Program-made: the position numbers and the translations under genes | Notes under the pieces: generated by a model | Database searches by the model: none | Told to the model about the DNA's origin: nothing | The model's input: only the letters and a program-made list of their open reading frames with translations | Shown here: one piece after another, positions 5,037 through 40,933 of the stretch | How positions within the stretch are numbered: position 1 is the stretch's first letter | Layout of the letters: every line of letters begins with the position of its first letter | Assembly: GCA_049999805.1 (NCBI GenBank) | Contig: JBNGIO010005439.1 | Span: forward strand, 62,001-102,933 | DNA length: 40,933 nucleotides | Reading direction: 5' to 3' | Source: Folioceros fuciformis | Taxonomy: Eukaryota

Positions 5037-8000
5037 TCAGCACATCCCAGCCCTGCCATGCCACACCCTGCTCTGCTTGACCCTCATCCCCAACGGAAAC
5101 CTATGCACCACTCCGTCCATGTCTGTCCACCAGCTCTCACCAGGCTGCTTCCATGCCCTCAACCTTTTCCTCTTGGCCTGCACCTTCTGTGCCTGCTCCC
5201 ACATCTGGGCTCCTGTGTAGATGTTGGACATCAGGACGTAAGCAGCAGCATCTTTCTGGTCCAGCTTCACCGCCTCCTTGAACGCATGCTGCCCCACCTC
5301 CACGTTGCTCCACTTCTGACACGCACCCAACAGGGTGTGCCAAACTGCACCATTAGGCAGTACAGGCATGGTTCTTACCAGGGCTAAGGCCTCGTTGAGG
5401 TGGCCTGCTCGACCCAGCGCATCCACCATGCACGTGTAGTGGGCCTGCGACGGCCTGACCCCGTAGTCTCTGCTCATGGCCTGGAAGAACTCCTGCGTCT
5501 TCTCCACCAGACCCGCATGGCAGCACGCTGTTAGTACGCTGAGCGATGTGATGCCGTCCGGCCATACCCCGTCGTCTCGCATCCTCTGCACCAGGTCGAA
5601 CACCGCTTCGCTGTCTCCCTGGCACGCGTAGCCTGCAATTAGGGCACTCCACGAGACGACGTTTCTTTCAGGTAACGCGTCGAACACCTGCTGTGCATCA
5701 CCCATGCTTCCGGACTTGCCGTACATGTGAATCAAACTGCTGGCTACGAGGCCGTCGGATTGAAGCCCTTGCTCTAAGATGTGCGCGTGAAGTTGCCTCC
5801 CCAGATACAGTGCTGCAGTCGATGCGCATGCCTGCAGCAGGCATACCAAGGTCACCTTGTTCGGTGCTGAGAGGCCTTCTTCTTGCATAGCACGGTAGAG
5901 GTGAAGTGCTTCCTGGCCCATGCCCTGCTGGGAATACCCTGCCAGCATGGAAGTCCACATCACCACATCCTTGCGGCTAAGCCCCTCAAACACTGTCTCG
6001 GCGGCTTCCAAGCTGCCACACTTTGCATACATGTTTACCAAACTGCTGGCTACAAACACATCAGCTTGCTGTCCTCTTTCTGCGATCTGTGCGTGAAGCT
6101 GCTTCCCCATTCCCAGTGCGGGGCTGCCCACGATTGCACATGCCTGCAGGAGGCAGATGAATGTCACGGGATCGCCTGCTTCGTCCATCCTGCCGTACAG
6201 ACGTAGAGCCTCCTGCCCCATACCCAGTTGCAAATATCCTGCTATTAGTGCGTTCCATGTCACCACGTCCTTTTCGCCCAAACCGCAAAACAATCTCTCT
6301 GCTTCTTCCAAGCACCCACACTTCACGTACATGTTCACCAAACTGCTTGCGAGAAATACGTCAACCTGGTCCCCTCGTTCTGCAATAAGCTTGTGAAACT
6401 CCTTGCCCATCTCCAAAGCCGGAGCACCGACACTCGCACATGCCTGTAGGAGGCAGACATAGGTCACGGAGTCAGGCACACAGACCCCTTCATCTTGCAT
6501 AGCACTGTATAGACGAAGGGCTTGGTGCCCCATGCCCTGCTGGGAATATCCTGCTATCATGGCATTCCACACCACCACGTTTTTTTCACCCACTCCATCA
6601 AACACGTTCTGTGCGTCTTCCAAGCTGCCACACTTTGCATACATATTTACCAAACTGCTGGCTACGAACACACCTGCTTCAAGTCCTTGATCTCGAATCT
6701 GCATGTGAAGCTGCTTCCCCTTCTCTAGCGCCCGGCTGCCCTCACTTGCACATGCCTGCAGTAGGCACACAAATGTCACACGATTGCGTACAGCGATGCC
6801 TTCTTCTTGCATCGCACTGTACAGGTGAAGGGCTTCCTGACCCATGCCCCGTTGGGAATACCCTGATATTATCGCAGTCCACATCACCTCATTCTTTTTA
6901 CGACATCCATGAAAAACTCTCTGAGAGTCTTCCAAGCTGCCACACTTTGCGTACATGTTCACAAGACTGCTAGCTACAAACACATCGGCATCGTGTCCTA
7001 GTTCTCTAATTTGCATATGAAGCTGCTTCCCCTTCTCCAAGGCTGGAGTGCCCACACTTGCACATGCCTGCAGGATGCACACAAATGTCACCGAATTCGG
7101 TACCACCAAACCCTCTTCCTGCATAGCAATGTAAAGTTGAAGGGCTTCAACGCCCATGCCCTGCCGCGAATATCCTGCTATCATGGCAGTCCAAGTCACC
7201 TCATCTTTTTTACTGAGTCCCTCAAACACTCTCTGTGCATCAGCCAAGCTCCCACACTTTCCATACATATTCACCAAACTGTTGGCTACAAATACATCAA
7301 CATGAAATCCTCGTTCCTGTATGTCAGTATGAAGACGCTTGCCCTTCTCCAATGCAGGGTTGCCCACGCTTGCACACCCCTGCAGGAGGGATGCAAATGT
7401 CACAACATTTGGTACAGCAATGCCTTCTTCAAGCATAGCGCTGTAGAGCTCAAGAGCCTCCTGCCCCATTCCCTGCTGTGAATATCCTGCTATCATGCAG
7501 TTCCACGTGACCACGTCTTTTCGGGCGAGACCGTCAAAAACTCTTTGTGCATCTTCCAGACTGCCACACTTTGCATACATGTTGACCAAGCTGTTGGTTA
7601 CAAGGACATCAGCTTCGAATCCATGTGCTCTAATCTGGGCATGAATCTGCTTCCCGTCACACAATGCTAGTCTGCTGACACCTGCACATGCCTGCAAGAG
7701 GGATACAAATGTCACGGCATCAGGTGCAGGCGTGCCTTCTTCTTGCATAGCACGGTACAGACGGAGGGCTTCCTGTCCCATGGCCTGTTGGGAATAGCCT
7801 GCTATCATCGAGTTCCATGTCACCACGTTTTTCTTTACAAGCCCATCAAACACCTTGCGTGCATCTTGCAAGCTGCCACATTTTGCGTACATGCTCACCA
7901 AGCTGTTGGCTACAAACAGATCAGCTTGGTATCCTTGTTCTCTAATTAGCCCATGGAAATGCTTCCCCTTCTCCAATGCTGGGGCACCCACCCTCGCACA

Positions 8001-9077
8001 TGCCTGCAAGAGGCACACAAATGTCACGGAATTGGGTACAGTCATGCCTTCAGCTTCCATAGCACTGTAGAGGAGAAGAGCCTCCTGCCCCAGCCCCTGC
8101 CTGCAATATCCTGCTATCATAGCAGTCCAGGTCACCACATTTTTGTGACGCAGTCCAGCAAACACATTCCTAGCGTCTTCCAAGCTACCGCACTTAATAT
8201 ACATGGTCACCAAGGAATTACAGAGCAACATATCAGGAACAACACCACTGGCCAACGCATCAGCATGCACCTGCTGCCCTGTTTCCAGGTCTGCCTCCCG
8301 TCCACAAGCCTGAAGGGCAGCCATGAAGACATGGCCATCCGGCTTCACACTCGACCTCCGCATTAGATGGTATAGTTCTATGGCCCTCCTGTCGTGTCCG
8401 TATTTAACGTGGGCGGAAATTATGGCAGACCAGGCGAAGGCATCTGGTTTTGCAACTTCTTCAAACACATCCATCGAGTCTTGCAACCTGCCATGAGAAG
8501 CATACATTCGCAGGATGTGGAAGCCCAGGAAAGTGTCTGACTGGTACCCGCTTACAACCGCGACGGAGTGGACGCGGCGACCCAGAACAAGATCCTTCTT
8601 GGCTACACATCGACTCAGCACCCTGTAAACCAGAGATTTGGGAATGCAGCAGTCTGTCTGCACCAGAAGCTCCAATGCCTCCACAGCCTCAGCGAGATGC
8701 CCTTCACGACATAGCTTGCTCACTGTTAGAGCCATCACGCCGCTGTCATGATCTGCAGGTCTTCCAGGGCCAGGACCTTGCGGCAAGCTTCTGCCGAGCG
8801 CAGCGAGCTGCACATCCATCCAACCTGCCTTGTAGACATTGTTCAACCTGACGACCTCTCGGGACTGCTTGGTCCGGTCGCCAGACCCATGGTCCTGGAA
8901 ATACTGTCGCCACAAATTCTCCAGCCCAAGACCCTCTCTGGAACATCTGCCTCCACCCAGACATCCTCCAGGACGGCCGGGCTGTCTCACGAGGAACCCG
9001 TACCAACCCAACTGTTCGGGCGTCAACGGTGAAGTCAGGCGACTGTGACATCTTCTTAAAGTACCCACAAACTGCAT
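5037..9077 (-). CDS. PLS-class PPR protein 1 (E+ type, 7 P-LL-S units, no DYW)
   Basis: 1346-aa ORF with repeats VVTW.AMIAGYSQQG / VTFVCLLQACASVG / SLVNMYAKCGSL, then P2-L2-S2-E1-E2 and KQPGESWWTDMDGVVHRF. Confidence 0.95.
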   Translation of the reverse strand: MQFVGTLRRCHSRLTSPLTPEQLGWYGFLVRQPGRPGGCLGGGRCSREGLGLENLWRQYFQDHGSGDRTKQSREVVRLNNVYKAGWMDVQLAALGRSLPQGPGPGRPADHDSGVMALTVSKLCREGHLAEAVEALELLVQTDCCIPKSLVYRVLSRCVAKKDLVLGRRVHSVAVVSGYQSDTFLGFHILRMYASHGRLQDSMDVFEEVAKPDAFAWSAIISAHVKYGHDRRAIELYHLMRRSSVKPDGHVFMAALQACGREADLETGQQVHADALASGVVPDMLLCNSLVTMYIKCGSLEDARNVFAGLRHKNVVTWTAMIAGYCRQGLGQEALLLYSAMEAEGMTVPNSVTFVCLLQACARVGAPALEKGKHFHGLIREQGYQADLFVANSLVSMYAKCGSLQDARKVFDGLVKKNVVTWNSMIAGYSQQAMGQEALRLYRAMQEEGTPAPDAVTFVSLLQACAGVSRLALCDGKQIHAQIRAHGFEADVLVTNSLVNMYAKCGSLEDAQRVFDGLARKDVVTWNCMIAGYSQQGMGQEALELYSAMLEEGIAVPNVVTFASLLQGCASVGNPALEKGKRLHTDIQERGFHVDVFVANSLVNMYGKCGSLADAQRVFEGLSKKDEVTWTAMIAGYSRQGMGVEALQLYIAMQEEGLVVPNSVTFVCILQACASVGTPALEKGKQLHMQIRELGHDADVFVASSLVNMYAKCGSLEDSQRVFHGCRKKNEVMWTAIISGYSQRGMGQEALHLYSAMQEEGIAVRNRVTFVCLLQACASEGSRALEKGKQLHMQIRDQGLEAGVFVASSLVNMYAKCGSLEDAQNVFDGVGEKNVVVWNAMIAGYSQQGMGHQALRLYSAMQDEGVCVPDSVTYVCLLQACASVGAPALEMGKEFHKLIAERGDQVDVFLASSLVNMYVKCGCLEEAERLFCGLGEKDVVTWNALIAGYLQLGMGQEALRLYGRMDEAGDPVTFICLLQACAIVGSPALGMGKQLHAQIAERGQQADVFVASSLVNMYAKCGSLEAAETVFEGLSRKDVVMWTSMLAGYSQQGMGQEALHLYRAMQEEGLSAPNKVTLVCLLQACASTAALYLGRQLHAHILEQGLQSDGLVASSLIHMYGKSGSMGDAQQVFDALPERNVVSWSALIAGYACQGDSEAVFDLVQRMRDDGVWPDGITSLSVLTACCHAGLVEKTQEFFQAMSRDYGVRPSQAHYTCMVDALGRAGHLNEALALVRTMPVLPNGAVWHTLLGACQKWSNVEVGQHAFKEAVKLDQKDAAAYVLMSNIYTGAQMWEQAQKVQAKRKRLRAWKQPGESWWTDMDGVVHRFPLGMRVKQSRVWHGRAGMC

Positions 9078-9464
9078 GATCCAGCAGACGGGTCATGCCT
9101 GCTGTTGCATCCATAAATCACAGCGCAACGCAAGTCCTGTCCAGTCCTGTCAAGCCATTACAATCTCTGCGTTTGCACTTGAGTCAGGCAGCAACTGGCA
9201 ACATACAACAGGACCAGCTGGAGGAGCCATGTTTGTTAGACCGGGCAAGCTAGTCTTGGTGGCGTTACGGGGATTCCAGACCGAGCTCCACCCCCCTCAC
9301 CTCATGGAACGCGTCATTGGCGACCAAGGACGCCGCGGGGTTCAGTGCCTTTGCAAGATAACCAGCTTGTCACATAGGATGTCTGGTACGAGAGACATGT
9401 TCCAGCGAATGCTGTTTGCAGGCTCGTACTCGTCGCAGGTGTAGTAGCTGGCGAGCGCAGAATA

Positions 9465-12400
9465 ATGAGAGGAGCAGGGGGGGGGCTTGACTGTTGCCAC
9501 ACGTTCTACAAATCAGCTCGGGTGGATGCCCAGCTTGATTGTCTACATGTAGAGATGGGTCCCGGTGTCTGGAGCTTGCCGCATGATTGTGGCCCTGGAG
9601 GTTCTGCGGGATATGACAGGGGCGTGACGGCTGACATTGTGAGCACCTTGTGTCGTGAGGGCTGTGTTGCTGAGGCTGTGGAGGCTTTGGGAGTGCTGGT
9701 GCAGACGGACCGTTGTGTTTCCAAAGCTCTTTTTCATACTGTCTTGAAGAAGTCTGTTGTGGAGAGGGATCTTGTTGTGGGTCGTCGCGTTCATGCTTAC
9801 GCGGTGAAGGGGGGTTATGAGTCGGACACGTTCTTTAGCAATCACATTCTTCGAATGTATTCTTCTCATGGCAGGCTGCAGGACGCGATGGATGTGTTCA
9901 CCATAGTTGCGGAACCGGATGCTTTCATGTGGTCTTCCATCATTTCTGCCCATGTGAAACACGGACAGGAGAGACAGGCTATACAGCTGTATCATCGGAT
10001 GTGCAGGGCAGCTGTGAAGCCAGATGGCTACGTATTTGTAGCAGCCCTTCAGGCTTGTGCACGAGGATCCGACTTGAAAACCGGGCAGCAGGTGCATGCT
10101 GATATCGTGGCTGCCGGAGTTGAGTCTGATTTGTTTGTTTCTAGCTGCTTGGTGGACATGTATGCCAAGTGTGGCTGCTTGGCAGAAGCACAGACTGTGT
10201 TTGACGGACTCGGTCAGAAAAATGTGGTAACTTGGAATGCAATGATGGCAGGTTATGCCCAGCAGGGCAAGGGGCTTGAGGCCCTTCGTCTGTATAGGAG
10301 TATGCAAGAGGAAGGTACCTCACTTCCCAATTGCGTCACGTTTGTGTGCCTCTTGCAGGCATGTGCGGGTTTGGGCAATTCGCTTTTGGGGATGGGGAAG
10401 GTGCTTCACTCACAAATAAGAGAACAAGGACACGATGCTGATGTGGTCGTAGCTAACAGTTTGTTGAACATGTATGCAAAGTGTGGCAGCCTCGAGGATG
10501 CTCAGGAAGTATTCGACGGACTTGGTCAAAAAGATGTAGTGTCGTGGAATGCCATGATAGCAGGGTATTCTCAGCAGGACATGTTCCAGGAAGCCCTTCG
10601 TTTATACACTGCTATGCAAGAAGAAGGCATCACTGTACCGAGCTCCGTGACGTTTGTGTGCCTCCTGCACGCATGTGCAAGTGTGGGCACCCCAGTGGCA
10701 TTGGAGAAAGGCAAACAGCTCCATTTGCACATCAGAGAACACGGATACGAAACTGATGCGTTTGTGGCCAACAGTCTGGTGAACATGTATGCGAAGTGTG
10801 GCAGCTTGCACGACGCGCAAATAGTGTTTGATGGTCTTGGCCGAAGGGATGTGGTCACATGGACTGTGCTAATTGCAGGATATTGTCAGGAGGGCTTGGG
10901 CCAGGAAGCCCTTAGTCTGTACAGTGTCATGCAAGAGGAAGGCATGGTTGTACCTGATTGTGTGACTTTTGTGTGCCTCCTGCAGGCATGTGCCAGTGTG
11001 GGCCCCTCAGCTCTGGAGAAGGGGACACAGCTTCATGCAGAAATTAGAAAACAAGGATACCACGCTGACGAGATTGTGGCGAACTGTCTGATACACATGT
11101 ATGCAAAGTGTGGCAGCCTAGACGATGCGCAGAAAGTGTTTGACGAACTTGGTCACAAGGGTGTGGTGATGTGGAATGCTATCATAGCAGGGTATTGCCA
11201 GCAGGGCAGGAGCCATGAAGCTATTCAACTCTTCAGGGCTATGGAACATGAAGGCTTGGCCAGACCCGATTCTGTGACATTTGTGTGCCTCCTGCAGGCA
11301 TGTGCGAGCGTGGGCGCGCAAGCATTGGAAATGGGAAAGCAGCTTCATAGACAAATAAGAGAAGGAGGACATCAACATGACTTGTTTGTAGCAAACAGTC
11401 TGATAAACATGTACGCCAAGTGCGGTAGCTTGCATGATGCTCAAGGAGCGTTTGATGGACTTGATCAGAAAGATGTCGTGACATGGAATGCCATGATAGC
11501 CGGGTATTCCCAGTTGGGTATGGGCCGGGAAGCCCTTTATCTCTACAATGCAATGGAAGAAGAAGGCATCAATGCACCTGATTCAGTGACATTTGTGTGC
11601 CTCCTGCAGGCATGTACAAGCCTGGGCTCCGCTGCCCTGGAGAAAGGGAAGCAACTTCACTTACAAATCAGAGAACGAGGACACCAAGCTGATCCGTTTG
11701 TAGGGAACAGCTTGGTACACATGTATGCAAAATGTGGCAGCTTGGGAGACGCTCAGAGTGTGTTTGACAGCCTGGGTCAAAAGGATGTGGCGACATGGAC
11801 TGGGCTAATTGTAGGATATTGTGAGCAGGGAATGGGCCAGGAAGCCCTTTGTCTTTACAGTGCTATGCAAGCAGAAGGCATTGTTGTGCCTAATTCCTTG
11901 ACATTTGTGGGTCTCTTGCAGGGATGTGCAAACGTAGCAGGTCTACATCTGGGAAGGCAGCTACATGCACAGATTGAAGAACAAGGGCTTCAAGCTGACA
12001 TGTTCGTTGCAGGCAGTTTGATAAACATGTATGGTAAGTGCGGATGCATCACCGATGCACAGCAGGTGTTTGATTCATTGCCTCAGAGAGATATTGTCAT
12101 CTGGAGTGCACTGATTGCAGGCTACACTTGTCAAGGAGACAGTGAAGCGGTTTTCGACCTGGTCGAGAGAATGAGAGAGGATGGCATACGGCCCGTTACC
12201 ATCACATTCGTTAGTGTCCTAACAGCATGCAGTCATGCGGGTCTAGTGGACAGAGGGATGGCTTATTTTGAGGCTATGAGCACACACTACGGCATAACCC
12301 CTACCGTGGAGCACTACACATGCATTGTAGACCTCCTGGGCCGTGCAGGCAGACTGGACGATGCACTAGCTTTGATAAGGACAATGCCTATTCCGGCTGA

Positions 12401-12752
12401 TGTTGCAGTTTGGCACACTGTGTTGGGTGCTTGCCGGACCTGCAGCAACATGGAGGTGGGACGCCATGCTTTTGATCAAATACTGAAGTTAGATCACAAA
12501 AATGCTGCAGCCTATGTCGTAATGTCAAGCATTTACACCAGCTTACAAATGTGGGAGAGGGCAGAGGAGATGCAGGCTAGCAGAGCAAGAATCGGGGCAT
12601 GGAAGCAGGCGGGTCAGAGCTGGTGGATAGACATGGACGGGTTGGTGCATAGTTTCGTGGTTGGGGAGCAGAAATTCTCGCCCCAAGATTCAAGGGGCCA
12701 ATCCAACGACAGCTACATATCGTCGGGCCTGGGGTTCACAGATCCACTCTAG
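9465..12752 (+). CDS. PLS-class PPR protein 2 (E+ type, 5 P-LL-S units, no DYW)
   Basis: 1095-aa ORF with the same architecture; ends KQAGQSWWIDMDGLVHSFVVG plus a short tail. Confidence 0.95.
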   Translation: MRGAGGGLDCCHTFYKSARVDAQLDCLHVEMGPGVWSLPHDCGPGGSAGYDRGVTADIVSTLCREGCVAEAVEALGVLVQTDRCVSKALFHTVLKKSVVERDLVVGRRVHAYAVKGGYESDTFFSNHILRMYSSHGRLQDAMDVFTIVAEPDAFMWSSIISAHVKHGQERQAIQLYHRMCRAAVKPDGYVFVAALQACARGSDLKTGQQVHADIVAAGVESDLFVSSCLVDMYAKCGCLAEAQTVFDGLGQKNVVTWNAMMAGYAQQGKGLEALRLYRSMQEEGTSLPNCVTFVCLLQACAGLGNSLLGMGKVLHSQIREQGHDADVVVANSLLNMYAKCGSLEDAQEVFDGLGQKDVVSWNAMIAGYSQQDMFQEALRLYTAMQEEGITVPSSVTFVCLLHACASVGTPVALEKGKQLHLHIREHGYETDAFVANSLVNMYAKCGSLHDAQIVFDGLGRRDVVTWTVLIAGYCQEGLGQEALSLYSVMQEEGMVVPDCVTFVCLLQACASVGPSALEKGTQLHAEIRKQGYHADEIVANCLIHMYAKCGSLDDAQKVFDELGHKGVVMWNAIIAGYCQQGRSHEAIQLFRAMEHEGLARPDSVTFVCLLQACASVGAQALEMGKQLHRQIREGGHQHDLFVANSLINMYAKCGSLHDAQGAFDGLDQKDVVTWNAMIAGYSQLGMGREALYLYNAMEEEGINAPDSVTFVCLLQACTSLGSAALEKGKQLHLQIRERGHQADPFVGNSLVHMYAKCGSLGDAQSVFDSLGQKDVATWTGLIVGYCEQGMGQEALCLYSAMQAEGIVVPNSLTFVGLLQGCANVAGLHLGRQLHAQIEEQGLQADMFVAGSLINMYGKCGCITDAQQVFDSLPQRDIVIWSALIAGYTCQGDSEAVFDLVERMREDGIRPVTITFVSVLTACSHAGLVDRGMAYFEAMSTHYGITPTVEHYTCIVDLLGRAGRLDDALALIRTMPIPADVAVWHTVLGACRTCSNMEVGRHAFDQILKLDHKNAAAYVVMSSIYTSLQMWERAEEMQASRARIGAWKQAGQSWWIDMDGLVHSFVVGEQKFSPQDSRGQSNDSYISSGLGFTDPL

Positions 12753-13199: not shown

Positions 13200-13452
13200 G
13201 TCCTTTTCGTGGGACAAAAGTGGCGAGGCGGTGCTTTTGAAAGTTGCTCGTACTCACAACAACGTGACTGACGGCTCGACGCCGTTTAGAACCGTCTGCA
13301 TTCGGGTCGCTTGTCAGGTGTATCTTACTTGAGCGTGACTGCGGGTGTCGGAGCGTGCGCAAAAGATGATGACCAAAGTTCTCTGGAACAGTCCACGACT
13401 CTACAGAGTATGTGGACAAGTACAGTGTGCTCTCACTTCGCGCAGATCATCC

Positions 13453-15698: not shown

Positions 15699-16094
15699 CG
15701 TTCAGACACCAGCAATGCGTGCGACGGGTTGCGTGCAACGGTGAAAGGGTGGTAGAAGGCAGCACCAACTGGCTGCTGAATTATGTATCTTAGCACATTT
15801 GCACTGATGAATTCGCCGGAGCTCCAGAGACGTAGAAGCTGTTAGGATCGTGGTACGTGATATCCTGAACTGCCTAGGACCGGCTATGGCTTTTCATCTT
15901 CGAGAATTCCCGAACATGGAGTCAACAAGTTGCAAATTTGACTACCCTTTAAGGATCAAGTTTCCTCCGTCCCGGGTCGGTGGCACACTGGTTACAAACA
16001 GCGTAGGCTACTCTCAAACCGTCAGATTTCACCGTCGTTTGTACTATAACGGACGTCTCGTTCTTTCAGGATTTGGCTGCCTAGAAGCCCCAAC

Positions 16095-21900: not shown

Positions 21901-22164
21901 TGTCTTGGCTACAAACGCATAACATCGGTGTTCTTGATCCCAAGCAGTTGGAAGTCGTGCATGCACGGGCTCTGAAAAGCGAAGGTACTAAAGAGTCGCA
22001 GAATTCCAAAATGGGTACTGCACACTCCCGAAGTTCGGGACACAAAGGAGAGCAACAAATGTAGGGAGAGATGCAGGGGCACATCGACGAAAACTCTGGT
22101 TTGGCCATCGATCAGATGGACTGAACCATGTTTGTGAGGGCTCAGCCTTTGCCCCGCTCCAGCC

Positions 22165-27028: not shown

Positions 27029-27166
27029 TTTAACCATCATTCTCAAAAACTGAACATCATTATAAGAAACCACCTTTAAACATCATTCTCAAAGACTCAA
27101 CATCATTATAAAAAACTACGTTTAAACATCATTCTCAAAAGCTAAACATCATTATAAAAAACTACC
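27029..27166. repeat. Three tandem 46-bp repeats
   Basis: The unit tttaa(a/c)catcattctcaaaNNctNaacatcattataaNaaacNacN starts at 27029, 27075 and 27121. Confidence 0.9.
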
Positions 27167-27719
27167 TAAAACCTGACCCAGTGTTTGTGGTATAGGTAGG
27201 AGAATGCCCTTTGAAAATTAAAATTTTTATTTTCTATTTGTTAAGTTATTTTCAAATTTACTTGCAACTAAAATAAGGAGCATGATTTTTATTTTATTTT
27301 TATGCTTGTTGCTTTGCCAATGGTAGAATTTTAGGTTTTATGTACTTATAATTCACCTACAAACTCCTTACAATCTACCTACAAACTTCTAAATACATTT
27401 TGAATTTAGAGAGTATGGGCCATCTTTGATAACCAAAGCTCCACCCATCATTTCTATAAAGGAAGGTAAACTTAAACTCCAATACATTGGATTTCTTTCA
27501 ATATTTATAATAGAATGTTATTTTAAAATGATACAAAAATTATTGAGATAAAATAATAATTAATTATTAAAGAAATAATTACAAAGAGGTTTAGAGTAAA
27601 GTGTTTATTTAGATCACATCACAATAAACCCTAATGAGTTCTCCTCTTGGGTTGTTTTCAAGAGGAAAAAATAAGTTTGTATCGAGTTTGTATCTTTTTG
27701 TGTCTCTCATGTAGTTGTT

Positions 27720-27905
27720 ACAAATCCCACAATTTTATCGCTCACAAATCCCGCTCACAAATCCCATAATTTTCCCGCTCACAAATCCCATAATTTTCCC
27801 GCTCACAAATCCCACAATTTTATCCCCATATTTGTGACACTCATATAATTGTTACAAATCCCACTAAGGATTCAATTTACGATCAAGAAATTATCACAAA
27901 TCCCA
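27720..27905. repeat. Array of ACAAATCCC motifs (24-bp period core)
   Basis: acaaatccc occurs at about 27720, 27744, 27757, 27781, 27805, 27854 and 27896; the core unit is cgctcacaaatcccataattttcc. Confidence 0.85.
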
Positions 27906-28136
27906 CAAAAAATTCGATTTGCAAAATTTAAAAATTCAATTGACAAACACACAATCAAAAGTTTAAAGTACAAAGTTTAAGAATTCGACTTCCAAACACG
28001 TAATCATCGCAAGGATTTGACCCTCAGAAGGGATAGAAAGTTTTGTAAAGGCCAAAGTTCATAAATATTTTCTCTTTTATATATTTTCCACTAACTCCAT
28101 TTTGATGTAATCTGCGTATATTTATATTATATTCGA

Positions 28137-28699: not shown

Positions 28700-31600
28700 T
28701 CACAGGGACATCTTATTCCCAACCAGAAACGTGTGCACGACCCCGTCCATGTCTGTCCACCAGCTTTCACCTGGCACCTTCCATGCCCCCATTCGTACTC
28801 TCCTTACCTGCATCTCCTTCGCCTGCTCCCACATCTGGCCACTGGTGTATATATTCGACATCAGCACATACGCTGCAGCATCTTTCGTGTCCAGCTTCAC
28901 AGCTTCACGGAAAGCATGACAGCCCATCTCTACGTTGCTCCACTTCTGACAAGAACCCAGCAGAGTGTGCCAAACTGCAGCATTAGGTTGCACAGGCATT
29001 GTCTTCACCAAACCTAGTGCTTCATCCAGTCGACCCGCACGGCCCAGCATATCAACCATGCACGTATAGTGCTCCACAGTGGGAGTAATGCCATCATGTG
29101 TACTCATGACCTCGAAGTACTCTTTCCCTTCGTCCACCAAACCCGCATGACTGCACGCTGTTAGTACACTGACGGATGTGATGCCTACCGGCTCTATTCC
29201 ATCCTGTCTCATTCTCTGGACCAATCTAAAAACCATTTCACTGTCTCCTATGCAGGCATAGCCTGCAATCAGTGCACTCCATGCCACAACGTCTCTTCTG
29301 GCCAATCCATCAAACACCTGCTGTGCATAAACCATGCACCCTGACTTTGCATACATGTTTATCAAACTTCCAGCTATGAACAAATCAGCTTCAAGTCCCT
29401 GTTCTGCAAGTCGTGCATGTAGCCGTCTTCCCATGTGTATAGCTGCCACATTTGCACATGCCTGAAGGAGGCAGACAAATGTAACAGAGTCAGCCACGGT
29501 CAAGCCGGATTCTTCCATGGCACTGTGCAGACGAAGGGCTACCTGGCCCATGCCCTGCTGGGAATACCCTGATATCATAGCAGTCCACATTACCGCATCT
29601 TTATTTCCATGACTGTCGAACACTTGTCGAGCATCTTCCAAGCTGCCGCACTTCACATACATGTTTACCAAACTGCTCGCTATAAACGGATCTTTGTCAT
29701 GTCCTTGCTCTCTGATCTGGATATGCAGCTGCCTCCCCTTATCCAAAGCTGAGGGACCCACTATTGCACATGCTTGCAGGAAGCACGAAAATGTTACCAA
29801 ATCAGGAATAACCCTGCCTTCTTGCATTGCAGTGCAGAGACCAAGGGCTTCCTTGCCCATGCCCTTCTGAATATATCCTGCTATCATGGCATTCCACATC
29901 GCTGAGTCATTTTGATCAAGCCCCTCAAACACTCTCTCAGCATCCCCTAGGCTGCCACACTTTGCGTACATATTTACCAAACTGCAGGACAAAATTACAT
30001 CGAGTTGGTGTCCTAGTTCTCCTATTCGTGCATGGAGCTGCCTACCAACCTCCAAAGCTGGGGCGCCAATGCTTGCACATGCCTGCAACAGAGATACAAA
30101 TGTCATGGAGTTGGCCACACTGATGCCTTCTTCTTGCATAACACTGTAGAGATGAAGAGCTTCTTGGCCCATTCCCTGCAGGGAATATCCAGCTATCATT
30201 GCATTCCAAGTCACCACATTTTTTTCATCAATGCCATGAAATACACTTCGGGCATCCTCGAGGCTGCCACACTTTGCGTACATGTTTACCAAACTGTTAG
30301 CTACAAAAGCATTACCTTGCTCTCCTCGTTCCGAGATTTGCACATGAAGTTGCCTCCCTTTCTCCAAGGCTGGGGTTCCTATACTTGCACATGCCTGAAG
30401 GAGGGACACCCAAGTAATGGAATCTGGTAAAGCGATGCCTTCTTCTTTCATCATACTGTACAGATGAAGGGCCTCCTCGCCCATGCCCTCCTGCGAATAT
30501 CCTCTAATCATGATATTCCAGGTCACAACATCCTTTTCAGAAATTCCATCAAACACACTCTGCGCGTTCTCCAGGCTGCTACACTTTGCATACATGTCTA
30601 CCAGACTGCTGGCTACCCGCAAATCACATTCAAGGCCTTGTTCCCTAACTTGAGCATGAAGCTCTTTGCCCATGTCTAATGCTGGGGCCCCCACACTTGC
30701 ACATGCTTGGAGGAGGCAGACAAGTGTTATGGAGTTTGGAATAGCCATACCTTCTCCTTGCATGACACTGTAAATATGAAGAGCCTTCTGGCCCATCCCC
30801 TGCTGAGCATACCCAGCAATTAAAGCAGTCCATGTCACAACATCTTTCTGATCAAGGCCATCAAACACTCTTTGAGCGTCTTCCAAGCTGTCACACTTCG
30901 CATACATATTCACCAAACTGCTGGCAACCACCATCTCCTCGTGGTGTCCTTGTTCCCTGATTTGAGTATGAAGTTGCCTCCCCTTGTCCAATGCCGCATT
31001 GCCCACACAGGCACATGCCTGCAAGAGGCACACAAATGTCAGTGTATTTGGCACAGCCATGCCTTCTTCTTGCATCTCGTCGTAGAGCTGCAGTGCTTTC
31101 TGGCCCATGCCCCCCTGGGAGTACCCCGCGATTAGGCTAGTCCAAGTTACCACATCTTTCCGAGGGAGATCGTCAAACACTCTCTGAGCATCTTCCAAGC
31201 TGCCACACTTGGCATACATGTTTACCAAGCTGCTGGCTATAAATACCTCATTTTCATATCCTCCTCCTTTTATCTGTGAATGGAGCTGCTTCCCCGTTTC
31301 ATAGGCCAAGTTGCCAATCGTTGCACACGCTTGCAGGAGGCACACCAGTGTCACGCAATCGGGTACAGCAATACAGTCCTGTAGCATTGCACTGTACAGA
31401 CGGAGGGCTTCCTGCCCCAAGCCCTGCTGGGAACATCCTGCTATCATGGCATTCCATGTCACCACGTCTTTTCGACCAAGACTATGAAACACTGTTTGAG
31501 CTTCTTCCAAGCTACCGCACTTTGCGTACATATTTACTAAACTGTTAGCTATACGTACATCAGTTTGATATCCTCGTTCCAAAATTTGGGCATGAAGATG

Positions 31601-33121
31601 CTTCCCTTCCCCCAATGCTGGCATGCCCATACTTGCACAAGCCTGGAGGAGGCACGCAAACGTCACAGAATCGGGTACAGCCATGCGTTGCTCTTGCATA
31701 ATCCTGTACAAGTGAAATGCTTGCTGCCCCATGCCCTGCTGGGAATACCCTACAATCAAAGCAGTCCATGTTACCACATCTTTTTGACAGAGACCATCGA
31801 ACACTATCTGAGCATCTTCCAAGCTGCCACACTTGACATACATGTTCACCAGACTATTGGCTACGCACACATCATTGTGATGCCCATGCTCTCTTGTGTG
31901 TGCATGAAGCTGCTTCCCCGTGTTCAACGCGGTGTTACCTAGAGCAGCACATGCTTGAAGGAGGCACACAAATGTCACAGAATTGGGAGCAACAAGACCT
32001 TCATGTTGCATAATCCTGTAGAAATGAAGGGCTTCCTGTCCCAAGCCCTGCTGAGAATACCCAGCTATCAAGGCATTCCACGTAACAACATCCTTTTCGA
32101 GCAGCCCATTGAACACACTCTGGGCTTTCTCCAAGCTGCCACACTTTGCATACATGTCCACCAAACCACTGCATACGAACAAGTCAGGCTTCACGCCACT
32201 GTCCAACACATCAGCGTGCACCTGTAAACCACCTTCCAAATCTGATCCGCGAGCACACGCCTGTAGGGCCGCCACAAATACATGGCCATCTAGCTTCACT
32301 GTTGACCTGCGCATCCGATGATACAGTTGCATGGCTTGCTTGTCACTTCCGTGCTTAACATGCGCAGAGATTATGGACGACCACATAAAGACATCCGGCT
32401 GGTCAACCATGGTGAAAACATCCATGGCCTCCTGCAGGCTCCCATGAGAGGCATACGTTCGCAGAATGTGGTTGCAAAGGAACGTGTCCGACTGGTGCCC
32501 CATTCTCACCGTAATTGCGTGGATTCGGCGACCCAGTACAAGATCTTTCGTGACAGCACACTTCTTGAGCACAATGAACACGAGAGATTTGGAAACACAA
32601 CACCCTGTCTGCACCAGAACTCCCAATGCCTCAACAGCCTGAGTGACAGAGCCCTCATCACACAGCTTGCGCACGGTCTCAGTCGTGACGCAGCTTTGGT
32701 GTCGTGCAGGCCTGCACGTGTCAGGATCACTCTGCAAGCTCCAGAAAGATTTGCGAGCACCACGCCTCATCTCCTCTGCGCGCAGCTCAACAAGCGGCGA
32801 ATTCATCCAAGCTGCCATCAAGTTCGGTGGGATGCCAAGCAAGGACTGCCGCCAACCGTCAGCCTTCGTGTCTTGCAAGTTATCCCACCCGAGCGGGCGG
32901 TGGTGACAGCAATGTTGCCACAAGGCAGGTTGGCGCAAGCGCGGATTCTGGCTGGAAGACCCGTCTCCAGACAGACATCCAGTTTTATCGGCCTTGGGAG
33001 TCTTTGTTGCAGAACAAGTCCTGCACCTCGCAGCTCGGTTGTTGGCCAGCAGTTGGTTCTTGGCGGTCAGGTGGGCGGGAACTCTTGCCAAAATACCAAT
33101 TGACATGCTCCAGACCCACAT
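28700..33121 (-). CDS. PLS-class PPR protein 5 (E+ type, 8 P-LL-S units, no DYW)
   Basis: 1473-aa ORF; ends KVPGESWWTDMDGVVHTFLVGNKMSL*. Confidence 0.95.
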   Translation of the reverse strand: MWVWSMSIGILARVPAHLTAKNQLLANNRAARCRTCSATKTPKADKTGCLSGDGSSSQNPRLRQPALWQHCCHHRPLGWDNLQDTKADGWRQSLLGIPPNLMAAWMNSPLVELRAEEMRRGARKSFWSLQSDPDTCRPARHQSCVTTETVRKLCDEGSVTQAVEALGVLVQTGCCVSKSLVFIVLKKCAVTKDLVLGRRIHAITVRMGHQSDTFLCNHILRTYASHGSLQEAMDVFTMVDQPDVFMWSSIISAHVKHGSDKQAMQLYHRMRRSTVKLDGHVFVAALQACARGSDLEGGLQVHADVLDSGVKPDLFVCSGLVDMYAKCGSLEKAQSVFNGLLEKDVVTWNALIAGYSQQGLGQEALHFYRIMQHEGLVAPNSVTFVCLLQACAALGNTALNTGKQLHAHTREHGHHNDVCVANSLVNMYVKCGSLEDAQIVFDGLCQKDVVTWTALIVGYSQQGMGQQAFHLYRIMQEQRMAVPDSVTFACLLQACASMGMPALGEGKHLHAQILERGYQTDVRIANSLVNMYAKCGSLEEAQTVFHSLGRKDVVTWNAMIAGCSQQGLGQEALRLYSAMLQDCIAVPDCVTLVCLLQACATIGNLAYETGKQLHSQIKGGGYENEVFIASSLVNMYAKCGSLEDAQRVFDDLPRKDVVTWTSLIAGYSQGGMGQKALQLYDEMQEEGMAVPNTLTFVCLLQACACVGNAALDKGRQLHTQIREQGHHEEMVVASSLVNMYAKCDSLEDAQRVFDGLDQKDVVTWTALIAGYAQQGMGQKALHIYSVMQGEGMAIPNSITLVCLLQACASVGAPALDMGKELHAQVREQGLECDLRVASSLVDMYAKCSSLENAQSVFDGISEKDVVTWNIMIRGYSQEGMGEEALHLYSMMKEEGIALPDSITWVSLLQACASIGTPALEKGRQLHVQISERGEQGNAFVANSLVNMYAKCGSLEDARSVFHGIDEKNVVTWNAMIAGYSLQGMGQEALHLYSVMQEEGISVANSMTFVSLLQACASIGAPALEVGRQLHARIGELGHQLDVILSCSLVNMYAKCGSLGDAERVFEGLDQNDSAMWNAMIAGYIQKGMGKEALGLCTAMQEGRVIPDLVTFSCFLQACAIVGPSALDKGRQLHIQIREQGHDKDPFIASSLVNMYVKCGSLEDARQVFDSHGNKDAVMWTAMISGYSQQGMGQVALRLHSAMEESGLTVADSVTFVCLLQACANVAAIHMGRRLHARLAEQGLEADLFIAGSLINMYAKSGCMVYAQQVFDGLARRDVVAWSALIAGYACIGDSEMVFRLVQRMRQDGIEPVGITSVSVLTACSHAGLVDEGKEYFEVMSTHDGITPTVEHYTCMVDMLGRAGRLDEALGLVKTMPVQPNAAVWHTLLGSCQKWSNVEMGCHAFREAVKLDTKDAAAYVLMSNIYTSGQMWEQAKEMQVRRVRMGAWKVPGESWWTDMDGVVHTFLVGNKMSL

Positions 33122-33229
33122 GACCTTGTGCTCCTTGCATGATTCAACACGGCCTACCCAGCATCATAGGTGCTCAGGATTGCTGGAATGGGGCTGGGAT
33201 CAGCATGGAGAAGATAACAGCGGGCGCCA

Positions 33230-33570
33230 AGCGATTGTTGGAGAATCGGAGTATAGCAATGATCCTTGCATATCAGTTGCAATCTCTTCTCCTCGCATTG
33301 AACTACGATGTTGCAATGCCGTCTAACACTTGCCCAGGTGACCATATACAGCAGGCATTATGTTGAAAGTGGTGACCACATATTGTTGGCCAAGTCCTTG
33401 AAACTCTCCTGAAAGTATTCCCCAAGCTGCCACGGTTTGCACACAAATGCATGAACGTAATATCCTCCTTTGATACGAACAGGCAGCTGCTTCCCCTCCA
33501 ATAGGAAGCAGATAGGGATAGGGGAAAGTGTCCCACGGTAGAACATGCATGCTGCAGGGAACGCATGTCC
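33230..33570 (-). pseudogene. Degenerate PPR LL-S-P fragment
   Basis: Minus-strand relics in shifting frames: SLQHACSTVG, LEGKQLPVRIKGG, cgtggcagcttg (RGSL) and FQGLGQQYVVT. Confidence 0.6.
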
Positions 33571-33670: not shown

Positions 33671-34411
33671 TTATCCTATCCTGGTCAGGCCTTCATTGAA
33701 TGCCTTCACCTGCCCACTAGCATGGCGAACACAAGCACAGCGGAGCCTGGAGGGCCATATCAGTTCGAGTAGATAGCTGGAGTCGGAAACTATGTGCGTT
33801 CGAACACCCTAAACCCTCTCCAACTCTCTACTCATAGAATCCATACGCGTTTCACCAACCCCTGCCACCCCTCGATCAGGGCCTTCTGCCTGTCAACAAG
33901 CTCCGACTTCGCCTGCAGCTCCGCTTCTAGGGCTGCAATTTCCTGTCATGTCAGCCGTAACACCACGCAATTACTGCAAGGCAGAGTAGCAGAGCCAAGT
34001 CAAGCAAGCTGGCCCGCATGGCTGATGGACTAATCACCACCATGCACACCTTAGTCAAAAGACCCTCCCGCGACGGAGGGTGCTGATATTGCACACCGAT
34101 GAGCAGCAATTGCAGCTTCTTGGCCGTCTCGATAAACTCCCTGACGTACTTTTCTACATTCGCTGAAACTTGCAGCAGCCTCGCAGTCAGACAAGGCAAG
34201 GCAAGGCACATGAGCATAGCTCTGCTCACAGCAGATGCAAGCAGGAAGAGCGCACATGTACCGTACCTGGGTGCGAAAGCGTGTAACTACGATCAGCCGC
34301 CTGGAGCTCCTTGGCCGGAAGACACGGCAGCAGGTTCCTGTCCATTGCCGCCACCAAGTTCAGCATCTCGGCTTCCGGTGCACAGGGCGATTGCTGTTGT
34401 GATGATGCCAT
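33671..34411 (-). CDS. MED28: Mediator complex subunit 28
   Basis: Exon 34411-34267 gives LVAAMDRNLLPCLPAKELQAADRS and exon 34162-34050 gives NVEKYVREFIETAKKLQLLLIG. A third exon gives EIAALEAELQAKSELVDRQKALI, matching plant MED28 (LLPCLPARELQA; FMEAAKKLQ). The last exon (VKAFNEGLTRIG*) is tentative; an alternative stop lies at 33832. Confidence 0.88.
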
Positions 34412-34882
34412 GCCGCTCCGCAGGTGCTGCACCGTGGAAGCTCAAGCGCATCCCGTGTCACAGTCACAGTCGTGACACTCGGGTCCAGGGTGTATCCCCA
34501 CTCTAAACTGTCCCCGTAGGTGTTGGGAGACAGTTGCTGTCAAAATCACACCCATTACAGTATTAGTTACACTTGCAATGATCCTGATGAGGAAACAAAG
34601 GCCATCCATGGTTCTCCTTCCGTTTCATGTCAAGGAGAAGACGTCGTGGAAACTCCAGATAGACAGGATGGGGTGAGATAGCTGGCTAGCTAGCTAGCCA
34701 TCTCGCACATAGGAGCATGCAAGTTTGGATACATGTACATACCACGAAAGTGGAGCTGAGGTGATTTGGGACGAAGTGAAGTCCCTGTTTGAGTGGTGCT
34801 AATATGTATGGAATGTGTAGAGTGAAGCAACTCTACGAGCGAGCTTGGGCTCATACACACCTTCGTGGTGTTGGAGACGGAG

Positions 34883-37800
34883 ATGGCTGGTGGACCCTCC
34901 AAATCAAACTGGAGTTTGCGGGATGATCCTGAGACTTGCAGGCCAGAAGGACATGTAGCTGGCGTTACGACTCAAACCGTCGTGACGTTATGTCGTAATG
35001 GGTATCTCGCAGAGGCAGTTGAGGCTTTGGGAGTTCTGGTAGTGACACAGTGTTTTGTTTCCACATCTCTCTTATATGCTGTTCTCAACACATGTGCAGC
35101 AGGGAAGGATCTTGTTCTGGGTCGTCGCGTCCATGCATTCACGGTAAAGTTGGGGTACCAGTCGAACACGTTCCTGTGCAACCTCATTCTGCGTATGTAT
35201 GCCTCTCATGGCAGGTTGCAGGACGCGATGGACGTGTTCACTATGGTGCCCGAGCCAGATGCTTTCATGTGGTCTTCCATAATTTCTTCGCATGTCAAAC
35301 TGGGACTAGACAAGCAGGCCTTACAGCTGTATGAAAGGATGCGAACGACCAACGTGAGGCCAGATGGCCATGTGTTTGTGGCAGCCCTCCAGGCTTGTGC
35401 AAAGGGAGGAGACTTGCGAACTGGGCGGTGGCTGCATGCCCATTTGTCGTCCAGTGGGCTTGAGTGTGATTTGTTTGTCTGTAACTGCTTGGTGGACATG
35501 TATGCCAAGTGTGACAGCTTGGCGGACGCTCGAAAGGTGTTTGACGGACTCAGTCACAAGGATGTCGTGACGTGGACTGCCATGATAGGAGGATATTCCC
35601 GGAAGGGCATGGGCAAGGAGGCCCTTTGTTTGTACAGTGTTATGCAAGAAGAAGGCTCTGCTGTACCCAATTCTGTGACTTATGTTTGCCTCTTGCAGGC
35701 ATGTGCAAGTGTGGGTGTTTCAGCTTTGAATGACGGGAAGCAGCTTCATGCTCAAATTAGAGAACGAGGATGCCAAGGTGATGTGTCCGTAGGCAACAGT
35801 TTGGTGAACATGTATGCAAAGTGTGGCAGCTTAGCGGATGCTCAAACAGTGTTTGACACACTGGGTCAGAAAGATACGGTGACTTGGAATGCCATGCTGG
35901 CAGGATATTCCCAGCAGGGCCTGGGCCACGAAGCCCTTCGCCTTCATGTTGCAATGCAGAACGAGGGCATCGTTGTACCCGATTCAGTGACATTTGTGTG
36001 CCTGCTGCAGGCATGTGCAAGTGTGGGCACCGAGGCGTTGGAGAAAGGGAGGCAGCTGTATGAGCAAATTATAGAACAAGGACATGAAACGGACGTGAAA
36101 ATAGCCAACAGTTTGGTAAACATGTATGCAAAGTGTGGTAGCTTGGATGACGCTCAGACAGTATTTGATAGTCTTGCTCAAAGAGATGTAGTGACATGGA
36201 CTGCTCTAATTGCAGGATATTCGCAGCAGGGCATGGGCCAGGAAGCCCTGCGGGTGTACACTGCTATGCACAACGAAGGTATCCTTGTACCCAACTCTGT
36301 GACATTTGTGTGCCTCCTCCAGGCCTGTGCAAGCGTGGGTGGCGGGGCATTGGAGAAGGGGAAGCAGCTTGAAATGCAATTGAGAGAACGAGGATACCAG
36401 GATGATGTGTTTGTTGCCAACAGTTTGGTAAACATGTATGCAAAGTGTGGCAGCTTGGAAGATGCTATGAGAGTGTTCGATGGACTTCGCCAGAAAGATG
36501 TGGTGACATGGAATGCCATGATAGCTGGATATTCCCAGCAGGGCATGGGGCTGGAAGCGCTTCGCCTGTACAGTGTGATGGAAGAAGAAGGTACTGTCGC
36601 ACCCAACGCTGTGACATTCGTGTGCCTGCTGCAGGTGTGTGCAAGTATGGGCATACCAGCTCTGGAGAAAGGAAAGCTGCTTCATGCACAAATTTGCGAA
36701 CAAGGGCATCAAGCTGGTGGGTTTCTAGGCGGCAGTTTGGTAAACATGTATGCAAAGTGTGGCAGCCTAGAGGATGCTCAGAACGTGTTTCAAGGACTTA
36801 GTCAAAAGGATGTGGTTACGTGGAATGCCTTGATAACAGGGTATGCCCTGCAGAGTATGGGCCAGGAAGCCCTTCGTCTCTACAGTGCTATGCAAGACGA
36901 GGGCATTACTGTACCTGATTCAGTGACTTTTGTGTGCGTGCTGCAGGCATGTGCAAGTATTGGTACTTCTGCTTTAGCCAAGGGGAAGCTGCTCCATACA
37001 CAAATTAGCGAACAAGGACACCAAGCTGATGTGGCTGTAGCAAACAGTTTGGTAAACATGTATGCAAAGTGCGGAAGCGTGGAAGATGCTGAAAGAGTGT
37101 TTGACGGAGTTGTTTCAAAAGATGTGGTGACATGGAATGCCATGATAGCTTTGTATTCCCAAAGAGGGCTGGGGGAGGAAGCCCTTCGTCTGTACACTGA
37201 CATGCGACAAGATGCCGTGGTTGCGCCTGATTCCGTGACATTTGCGCGCCTCTTGCAGGCATGTTCAAGTGTGGGCACCTCAGCTTTGGAGCAAGGGAAG
37301 CAGCTTCATGCCCAGATTAGAGAACGAGGACGTGAAGGTGATCCGTTTGTATCCAGCAGCTTGGTGAGCATGTATGCCAAGTGTGGCAGCTTTGAAGATG
37401 CACAGAGGGTGTTTGACGGACTTGGTTTTAAAGATGTGGCGACCTGGAACGCCATGATGGCGGGATTCATCCTCCAGGGCTTGGGGCAGGAAGCCATTCA
37501 TCTCTTCAGTGTGATGCAAGCAGATGGCAGTGCCCAACCGGACTGTGCGACATTTGTGTCTTTATTGCAGGCCTGTGCAAGTATTGGCATCCCTGCTTTG
37601 GAGAAAGGAAAGGAGCTCCATGTTCATATCAGAGAACGAGGACATGATGAAGATGTTGTTGTAGCAAACAGCTTGGTAAACATGTATGCGAAGTGTGGCA
37701 GTCTGGAGGATGCTCAACTAGTGTTTGACCGACTTGGTCGCAAAGATGTGGTGACGTGGAATACCATGATAGCAGGGTATTCACACAAGGGAATGGGTCA

Positions 37801-38671
37801 GGTGGTCCTAAATCTTTACAGAGACATGCAAGCAGATGGCATGGCTGTACCTGATTCCGTGACCTTCGTGTGCCTCCTGCAAGCGTGTGGAAATTTGGCA
37901 GCCTTGCATCTGGGAAGGCAGCTACATTCAGAAATAGAAAACCAAGGTCTTCACGCTGATGCGTTTGTAGCCAGCAGTTTGATGAACATGTATGGAAAGT
38001 GCGGGAGCATGGTTGATGCACAGGAGGTGTTTGATGCCTTGGCAAAACGAGATGTTGTGGCCTGGAGCGCACTGGTTGCAGGCTACACCCGCCAAGGAGA
38101 TAGTGAGGCAGTATGCGACTTGGTCCAGAGAATGCTGGAGGATGGGATACAGCCGGACGCCGTCACATTCCTCAGTGTGCTCACGGTATGCAGTCATGCA
38201 GGTCTAGTGAATAAGGGGGAAGAGTACTTTGAGGCTATGAGCAAACAGTTTGGTATCACTCCCACAGTGGAGCATTACACATGCATGGTGGATCTCCTGG
38301 GTCGTGCAGGCCAATTGGATGAGGCACTTTGTTTGGCAAGGTCAATTCCTGCACTGCCTGGTGCAGCCGTTTGGCATACTCTCTTGGGTTCTTGTCAAAA
38401 GTGGAGTAATGTGGAGGTGGGATGTCATGCTTTCAATGAAGCAGTAAAGCTAGATGCGAAAGATGCAGCAGCTTACCTACTGATGTCAAACATATACAGC
38501 AGTGCCCAGATGTGGGAGCAGGCTGAGGAGATGCAGACGAGGAGGAAAAGGATCAGTGCATGGAAGCGGCCAGGTCAGAGCTGGTGGACAGACATGGCTG
38601 GAGTGGTGCACGCTTTTGCTGTTAGGGACAAAACAGGCATCCCAAGAGTCGAGCAAGGTTGTGAAATATAA
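34883..38671 (+). CDS. PLS-class PPR protein 6 (E+ type, 7 P-LL-S units, no DYW)
   Basis: ORF 34865-38671 with first ATG at 34883. The MYAKCG motif recurs every 312 bp (35807, 36119, 36431...). Ends KRPGQSWWTDMAGVVHAFAVRDK... Confidence 0.95.
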   Translation: MAGGPSKSNWSLRDDPETCRPEGHVAGVTTQTVVTLCRNGYLAEAVEALGVLVVTQCFVSTSLLYAVLNTCAAGKDLVLGRRVHAFTVKLGYQSNTFLCNLILRMYASHGRLQDAMDVFTMVPEPDAFMWSSIISSHVKLGLDKQALQLYERMRTTNVRPDGHVFVAALQACAKGGDLRTGRWLHAHLSSSGLECDLFVCNCLVDMYAKCDSLADARKVFDGLSHKDVVTWTAMIGGYSRKGMGKEALCLYSVMQEEGSAVPNSVTYVCLLQACASVGVSALNDGKQLHAQIRERGCQGDVSVGNSLVNMYAKCGSLADAQTVFDTLGQKDTVTWNAMLAGYSQQGLGHEALRLHVAMQNEGIVVPDSVTFVCLLQACASVGTEALEKGRQLYEQIIEQGHETDVKIANSLVNMYAKCGSLDDAQTVFDSLAQRDVVTWTALIAGYSQQGMGQEALRVYTAMHNEGILVPNSVTFVCLLQACASVGGGALEKGKQLEMQLRERGYQDDVFVANSLVNMYAKCGSLEDAMRVFDGLRQKDVVTWNAMIAGYSQQGMGLEALRLYSVMEEEGTVAPNAVTFVCLLQVCASMGIPALEKGKLLHAQICEQGHQAGGFLGGSLVNMYAKCGSLEDAQNVFQGLSQKDVVTWNALITGYALQSMGQEALRLYSAMQDEGITVPDSVTFVCVLQACASIGTSALAKGKLLHTQISEQGHQADVAVANSLVNMYAKCGSVEDAERVFDGVVSKDVVTWNAMIALYSQRGLGEEALRLYTDMRQDAVVAPDSVTFARLLQACSSVGTSALEQGKQLHAQIRERGREGDPFVSSSLVSMYAKCGSFEDAQRVFDGLGFKDVATWNAMMAGFILQGLGQEAIHLFSVMQADGSAQPDCATFVSLLQACASIGIPALEKGKELHVHIRERGHDEDVVVANSLVNMYAKCGSLEDAQLVFDRLGRKDVVTWNTMIAGYSHKGMGQVVLNLYRDMQADGMAVPDSVTFVCLLQACGNLAALHLGRQLHSEIENQGLHADAFVASSLMNMYGKCGSMVDAQEVFDALAKRDVVAWSALVAGYTRQGDSEAVCDLVQRMLEDGIQPDAVTFLSVLTVCSHAGLVNKGEEYFEAMSKQFGITPTVEHYTCMVDLLGRAGQLDEALCLARSIPALPGAAVWHTLLGSCQKWSNVEVGCHAFNEAVKLDAKDAAAYLLMSNIYSSAQMWEQAEEMQTRRKRISAWKRPGQSWWTDMAGVVHAFAVRDKTGIPRVEQGCEI

Positions 38672-39947: not shown

Positions 39948-40933
<986 letters not shown>

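Follow-up and report, generated by a model that had tools for sequence, protein, structure and literature searches.

Six pentatricopeptide repeat genes in alternating orientation in a hornwort genome: a local cluster of a large, old family with no sign of recent exchange

The end of contig JBNGIO010005439.1 (C5439) in the 87-Mb assembly of Folioceros fuciformis carries six large genes for PLS-class pentatricopeptide repeat (PPR) proteins, arranged in alternating orientation within a stretch of 40,933 nucleotides (positions 62,001 to 102,933 of the contig; hereafter the window, with positions counted from its first letter). The original prediction for this locus saw in it a recombining factory of RNA-recognition specificities. 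We consider it probable that the six genes instead form a local cluster within a large and old expansion of PLS-class E+ PPR genes that is specific to this lineage. The expansion numbers about 390 copies, radiated in a nearly star-like manner and shows no present-day swapping of parts. An active factory in recent times is largely refuted.

All six paralogues are present as uninterrupted open reading frames (ORFs) of 1124–1487 amino acids (aa) in the order -,+,-,+,-,+, as had been predicted. G1 (5037..9092, minus strand, 1351 aa from stop to stop) and G2 (9378..12752, plus strand, 1124 aa) face away from each other with 286 bp between their ORF starts; G3 (16837..21240, minus strand, 1467 aa) and G4 (22138..26580, plus strand, 1480 aa) do so with starts 898 bp apart, and G5 (28700..33163, minus strand, 1487 aa) and G6 (34826..38671, plus strand, 1281 aa) make up the third pair. 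Following N-terminal extensions that vary between the genes, all six share one layout: a common first triplet of 101 aa, the central triplets, a triplet of 102–103 aa, and a block consisting of P2, L2, S2, E1, E2 and the PG box. Triplets were cut at the S-motif anchor, of which there are 8–11 per gene, giving S-P-L units of 104 aa; 40 of the 43 central units have exactly this length, and Tandem Repeats Finder (TRF) reports a period of 312. The central triplets number 7, 5, 8, 8, 8 and 7 in G1 to G6, so that the shared terminal blocks and unit counts of the original prediction were borne out. Its statement that only the number of units differs was not, as the genes are 68–74% identical in pairs along their whole length and each carries its own string of specificity residues. 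Pfam models PPR_2, PPR and E_motif matched the three genes scanned (G1, G2 and G6), with PF20431 above cut-off in all three. The PG box has the form PG.SWW.D in 6/6 genes, which we take to be the box named 'WW-type' by Gerke et al. 2020 and Gutmann et al. 2020. An assembly artefact was ruled out: the window contains zero N and its unique junctions are bridged by contigs. Among the matches listed, short-read contigs of two samples bridged or covered the junctions between the genes, from 14.5 to 34.5 kb, without differences.

The family was sampled in 27 regions including the window (84 genes, about 630 kb), with further clusters apparent among the genome matches. The unit comparison covered 302 units with a length of exactly 104 aa, drawn from 76 genes and including 40 of the window's 43. 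Units proved equally diverged everywhere, with identities of 71.2% between window genes (661 pairs), 70.9–71.7% within genes (119 pairs) and 71.6% between clusters (43,074 pairs). The most similar pair reached 79.8% in the window and 82.7% among all 302 units. Units had been expected to cluster across genes if parts were exchanged. They indeed do not cluster by gene, the nearest unit lying in the same gene for 0/40 window units, but no signal of exchange accompanies this: 35/40 best matches are in other clusters on other contigs, and the five found in other window genes are about the number expected from 40 of 302. Identical runs reached 43 nt in the window versus 49 nt in a sample of 6,371 unlinked pairs, and exact 45-mers do not recur within the window on either strand. 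Synonymous divergence (dS) is 1.14–1.18 and dN/dS 0.21–0.22; opposite-strand and same-strand window pairs have a dS of 1.13 and 1.16, respectively. At the sequence level, the units are shown to have diverged by about 29% and to evolve under purifying selection. Terminal blocks are 74.3–74.4% identical within clusters versus 72.2–73.0% between them (standard deviation (SD) 2.3).

A GENECONV-style conversion scan in our own implementation, which detects recent tracts only, was negative for the N block, the C block and the units (best global p 0.056, 0.31 and 0.14). A planted fresh tract of 90 nt was detected (p 0.005), and unlinked control sets gave p <0.05 in 3 and 6 of 20 cases, so that the scan leans to false alarms. 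The check for conversion tracts proposed with the original prediction thus came out negative for recent ones and, with equal divergence everywhere and dS >1, the claim that the inverted arrays drive ongoing inversion, conversion and unequal exchange finds no support. A sequencing run under another species label yielded at least 8 pieces of 250–370 bp that match specific parts of G3, G4 and G5 at 90–95% identity, a level far beyond that of any paralogue, some of them with 1-nt gaps; they are too short to give gene order or orientation. Such gene-specific identity suggests that G3, G4 and G5 predate that species split. Pieces at 24369-25514 and 28959-30845 of the window are 91–94% identical to G4 and G5 and have 1-nt gaps; judging from these gaps, the orthologues in that species may be broken and dying by frameshift.

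The WW-box pattern matched the genome 397 times versus 29 times for a control pattern and recovered 79 of the 84 sampled family genes, which puts the family at about 390 copies. The best 150 matches to the C-terminus of G6 are all 66–77% identical and dispersed over many contigs, with similar results for G2 and G3 as queries; window neighbours rank 2nd, about 53rd, 86th and 123rd among them, and G2 is not included. In a tree of the C block, which is almost star-like (inner branches 7% of its length, 6/71 branches starred), the six genes all fall within one sub-lineage of 35/74 rows. N-end and C-end distances are correlated across genes (Mantel r 0.25, p 0.001); the two ends were therefore inherited together and whole genes have not been scrambled.

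The genome has the traits of a hornwort, namely DYW:KP domains of the DRH or GRP variant (DRH in 2/6 DYW loci read) and a very large PLS family. It holds 488 DYW candidates, and among the 150 scored most end their match at position 91 of 93. Six DYW loci were read, four PG-type ending in DYW and two KP-type ending in DRH; one further KP-type locus ends in DNQ, and the loci read include C6284:197391-197999. The DRH ending is a hornwort DYW:KP variant according to PMC9478123. KP-type genes lie elsewhere in the genome, and the six window genes have the PG/WW box, not the KP motif or a KP-type DYW domain. Hornworts are described as having >1,400 PPRs and heavy editing (PMC10030945, PMC7027989), and their PPR expansion as mainly dispersed duplication tied to retroposition (PMC13386178). 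The matches listed from the protein database, at least 120, were plant PPRs of 32–51% identity with no named close relative among them, and the ESM Atlas matches were generic streptophyte PPR clusters. Family-type C-termini also occur inside open frames of 9217 and 5893 aa (C6356:174941-175339; C5967:67529-67927), which may be giant arrays, fusions or runs of N.

The units nevertheless appear to carry a trace of older reshuffling. Identity is 71.8% for units at the same array position versus 71.2% otherwise; clustering neither by gene nor much by position, they indicate that the founder's units differed little at the time the family expanded. Third positions more than 6 nt apart show background linkage (r2 0.0046–0.0052 versus 0.0047 expected; 211 units), except around the specificity residue of the P motif. 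The 12-nt head of this motif comes in two forms, N-A-M-I and T-A-L-I, with a bimodal score and with 81 and 9 units of the pure types versus 28 and 0.2 expected. The association extends to a silent site: the Ile codons ATA/ATT number 125/12 beside Asn and 37/40 beside Thr (p 5e-12). The Leu of the T-A-L-I form is mostly CTA, two steps from ATG. The order of the two forms differs from gene to gene, and linkage of the form with other sites in the unit is weak (r at most 0.24, versus <0.22 in 95% of permutations). Residue co-adaptation accounts for the pairing of amino acids and not easily for the silent Ile site; context-dependent mutation may be a source of the linked silent sites. Point change appears to add to the variation, since 13/98 Thr units stand on the Asn background and Ser at the code position is AGY, one step from Asn, in 133/134 of the codon rows listed. 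A sub-lineage of 24/74 rows (C6373, C5679, C4078, C6255 and others) is poor in T-type P motifs and frequently has Ser in its first unit, so that the mix of these cassettes differs between sub-lineages.

This pattern points to module shuffling in one ancient founding burst, which would have taken place between head-to-tail units and would have had no need of inverted genes. The reshuffling of recognition modules put forward by the original prediction thus finds a counterpart in ancient, genome-wide shuffling, with two P heads in gene-specific order, but it was neither local nor linked to orientation. Carried further, the whole family might be a fossil combinatorial library, a suggestion to which we give somewhat less than an even chance. 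A near-homogeneous master triplet of 312 bp in two P-head forms, N-A-M-I reading pyrimidines and T-A-L-I reading purines, would have been strung in varied number and order over hundreds of deaminase-less genes, giving instant target diversity, after which exchange stopped; the process would have been genome-wide, independent of orientation and by now long extinct. The two-variant P-motif pattern may already be in print in Gerke et al. 2020 or Gutmann et al. 2020. A search of the literature, supplements aside, for inverted head-to-head PLS clusters, triplet shuffling, conversion, and hornwort or WW-type PPRs found nothing on this point.

In order to place the alternation of the six genes, we compared it with 26 other regions (about 590 kb) that were picked, blind to strand, for at least two matches within about 15 kb. 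They hold 78 genes with the family C-terminus, ORFs below 180 bits (broken or KP-type) being left out. Head-to-tail pairs make up 39 of the 52 pairs of neighbours, against 7 tail-to-tail and 6 head-to-head pairs. Alternation is thus depleted among the family's other clusters, where the original prediction had asked whether it is enriched. Pure head-to-tail runs, with local relatedness, comprise six intact members at C6373:582610-600643 and five at C6161:4403-22967; with members <80% identical, these are old tandem duplicates. Five consecutive switches have a probability of 1/32 (0.03) at a coin flip, for a pattern chosen post hoc, and regions with six or more intact members number 3/27. The alternation is a real local outlier, and no mechanism demanding it was found.

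The DNA between the genes adds to this picture. Searching it with nhmmer gave six matches to the unit profile and three to the C block (E from 2e-37 to 1e-4, control no better than 0.21), which define three relic regions, all on the minus strand, where at least four had been claimed; no fourth relic was found by profile searches of this DNA. The first (16105..16817) is a decayed 3' part immediately behind G3 on the same strand, with about 1.4 units that precede the E domain and WW box (nhmmer E 2e-37 and 2e-32; also matched by tblastn). The second (21543..21920; E 2e-12 and 1e-6) is a single decayed unit in the G3/G4 spacer, and the third (33279..33567; E 2e-12 and 1e-4) a decayed unit between G5 and the MED28 gene described below. 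With relics included the order becomes -,+,-,-,-,+,-,-,+, and strict alternation is thus true of the surviving genes only. A lone relic of the family N-terminal block lies outside the window, at about 50560-50810 of C5439, some 11 kb upstream.

Three rival accounts of the alternation were weighed. An active specificity factory, with inverted arrays that still recombine, convert and invert here as restorer-of-fertility-like (RFL) clusters do, appears highly improbable to us. The alternation is real and rare in this family, unit numbers do differ, and RFL clusters demonstrate that PPR clusters can work in this way (PMC5075784). That known recombining case is, however, recognised by high similarity within clusters (PMC5075784), and this hallmark is missing here at the unit level (71.2% within versus 71.6% between clusters). 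The lack of any repeated 45-mer, dS >1, the negative scan for recent tracts, the same junctions in two samples and the gene-specific pieces under another species label speak against it as well. Alternatively, the alternation could be the fossil of an early local inverted duplication, through tandem copying of a head-to-head pair or through fold-back duplications that made G4, G5 and G6. The six genes do belong to one sub-lineage, and the mean residual distance of window pairs is -0.009. Same-strand pairs are nonetheless no closer than opposite-strand pairs (-0.009 each), and the spacers bear no relation to one another: the genes that separate the pairs differ, and a shared non-coding flank is lacking. 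In a more careful tree of 39 rows, G3 groups with five genes of C6161 (97/97), G6 with two other genes (98/86) and G1 with two others (92/87), and approximately unbiased (AU) tests on it reject both that the six share one origin (p 0.006) and that the minus-strand trio forms a clade (p 0.021). We find this account rather unlikely overall, and in its form of tandem copying of a head-to-head pair it was rejected, as same-strand pairs are no closer and the minus trio is not a clade. Selective survival, by which head-to-tail neighbours were lost or decayed or divergent pairs were kept for a shared bidirectional promoter, would fit the three relics on the strand of the adjacent minus-strand gene and the short distances between the ORF starts of G1/G2 and G3/G4. 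Intact head-to-tail runs of five and six persist elsewhere, however, and head-to-head neighbours are only 6/52; as the sole explanation we regard it as quite unlikely.

Several observations weigh against the reading we prefer, that of an old family cluster without ongoing exchange. At the rate of the family's other clusters, five consecutive switches have p 0.001-0.002 (0.1-0.2% per six-gene run). The plus-strand trio survives the AU test as a clade (p 0.26), the 39 rows were picked after the first tree with bootstrap values not yet settled, and on the quick tree of 74 rows the AU tests rejected nothing (p 0.51-0.96), although there they are uninformative because the constrained trees outscored the free one. 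In residual distance, G4 has G5 as its closest relative and vice versa (G4-G5 -0.029, G5-G6 -0.021, SD 0.010); being closer than background, G4-G5 and G5-G6 may have arisen by local inverted duplication. Finally, a planted tract aged by 10% was missed by the conversion scan, to which old exchange is therefore invisible. Taken together, a mixed history is most likely: separate arrivals in either orientation, decay of head-to-tail neighbours and perhaps local inverted duplication among G4–G6.

As an old family cluster, the locus could have come about as follows. During a founding burst, while the 312-bp unit was still near-homogeneous, slippage or unequal exchange between head-to-tail units would have changed unit number and order freely. 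Copies would have spread by dispersed, probably retro-, duplication and by tandem duplication. Those that came to lie at this locus, in one orientation or the other, would stem from no fewer than two or three sub-lineages; head-to-tail neighbours would have decayed into the three relics, leaving alternating survivors. Divergence since then would have shut down exchange; what remains, presumably, is drift of specificity through point mutations in the code residues and loss of genes through frameshifts.

The C-termini bear on what the proteins may do. In all six genes the stop comes 19-47 aa after the PG box begins (35 aa in G1), and a DYW deaminase (HxE, CxxC and terminal triplet), whether as a hidden exon or a frameshifted tail, was not found in three frames over 700 bp downstream in 6/6 genes. 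With a DYW domain in 0/6 window genes and 0/84 sampled family genes, they are not of the PPR-DYW type; the tail from WW to the stop is 15-157 aa long in the 79 sampled genes with the box located and retains decaying, variable traces of the DYW start. Tandem P-L-S triplets, E1-E2 followed by a PG box, an incomplete DYW and canonical code residues all agree with the E+ class. At the code positions (5 and last), the P motifs of the 302 units have ND (104), NN (57), TN (56) and TD (36), and the S motifs ND (129) and SD (64). These canonical residues stand in differing order in the six genes, each of which should thus read a different RNA. The residue-to-base table used for this reading is one we assume to apply. 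Plastid rbcL was sought in the assembly and not found.

Arabidopsis E+ proteins with a PG box and without a deaminase are complemented in trans, CRR4 by DYW1 and others as partners of DYW2 (PMC11897456, PMC10226603). By analogy, we infer that the six genes may encode C-to-U editing guides with a shared trans partner. Each protein would be imported into the plastid or the mitochondrion, bind one RNA through its P and S motifs and mark a cytidine that a DYW deaminase, provided in trans as with CRR4/DYW1 and DYW2, would edit from C to U.

The spacers also hold genes of other kinds. Between G2 and G3 lies an AMP-binding (acyl-CoA ligase or 4CL-like) gene with introns on the plus strand (13339..15700, 3' end approximate), matched by PF00501 (E 6e-51) on 13339-14553 and with later exons read by eye. 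The original prediction names neither this gene nor the lack of a DYW domain in the six. The MED28 (Mediator subunit 28) gene that had been placed inside the third pair is indeed found between G5 and G6, on the minus strand with three exons (about 33832..34411), PF11594 matching two exon pieces at E 0.034 and 3e-5, each below cut-off. The G4/G5 spacer contains an AT-rich insert (26900..28000, GC 0.30) with tandem repeats of 46, 24, 22 and 13 bp, possibly a remnant of a (non-autonomous) transposon. In the flanks are an ORF of 470 aa without a Pfam match (1410-2822, plus strand), a DnaJ-like exon (3919-4434, minus strand; E 1e-5, below cut-off) and an ORF (39948-40931, minus strand) without a Pfam match that presumably resembles a WRKY C-terminus.

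As a locus, the window is an ordinary cluster of the known hornwort PPR expansion, and the by-product at the unit level matters more. It concerns the origin of hundreds of editing specificities in hyper-editing plants, for which the unit data suggest two steps: shuffling of two ancestral specificity cassettes in a burst, and then point changes, with genes dying slowly. A family of some 390 factors that lack a deaminase, next to few canonical DYW genes, further predicts that hornworts have a shared trans-acting deaminase. The fossil shuffling of two cassettes is a lead worth following and is directly testable in chromosome-level hornwort genomes.

Three known systems resemble the one described here. 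The PLS expansion of Anthoceros and related hornworts is alike in that a small genome densely packed with genes carries PLS genes without introns by the hundred, in dispersed and tandem copies, together with DYW:KP domains that end in DRH; the excerpts of PMC7027989, PMC10030945 and PMC13386178 cover counts and modes of duplication, not unit-level history, cluster orientation or the two P-motif variants. With the Arabidopsis CRR4/DYW1 and DYW2 E+ partners (PMC11897456, PMC10226603), the six genes share the PLS array, E1-E2, the PG box and a truncated DYW start without the zinc-binding deaminase motif, but they differ in their longer arrays (8-11 triplets), the WW variant of the box and the presence of about 390 paralogues. 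RFL clusters, as described in the excerpts of PMC5075784, are likewise clustered PPR genes with differing motif numbers and code strings; RFLs, however, are of the P class and combine high similarity within clusters with chimeras and ongoing exchange, whereas the genes in the window are PLS-E+ genes without recent tracts.

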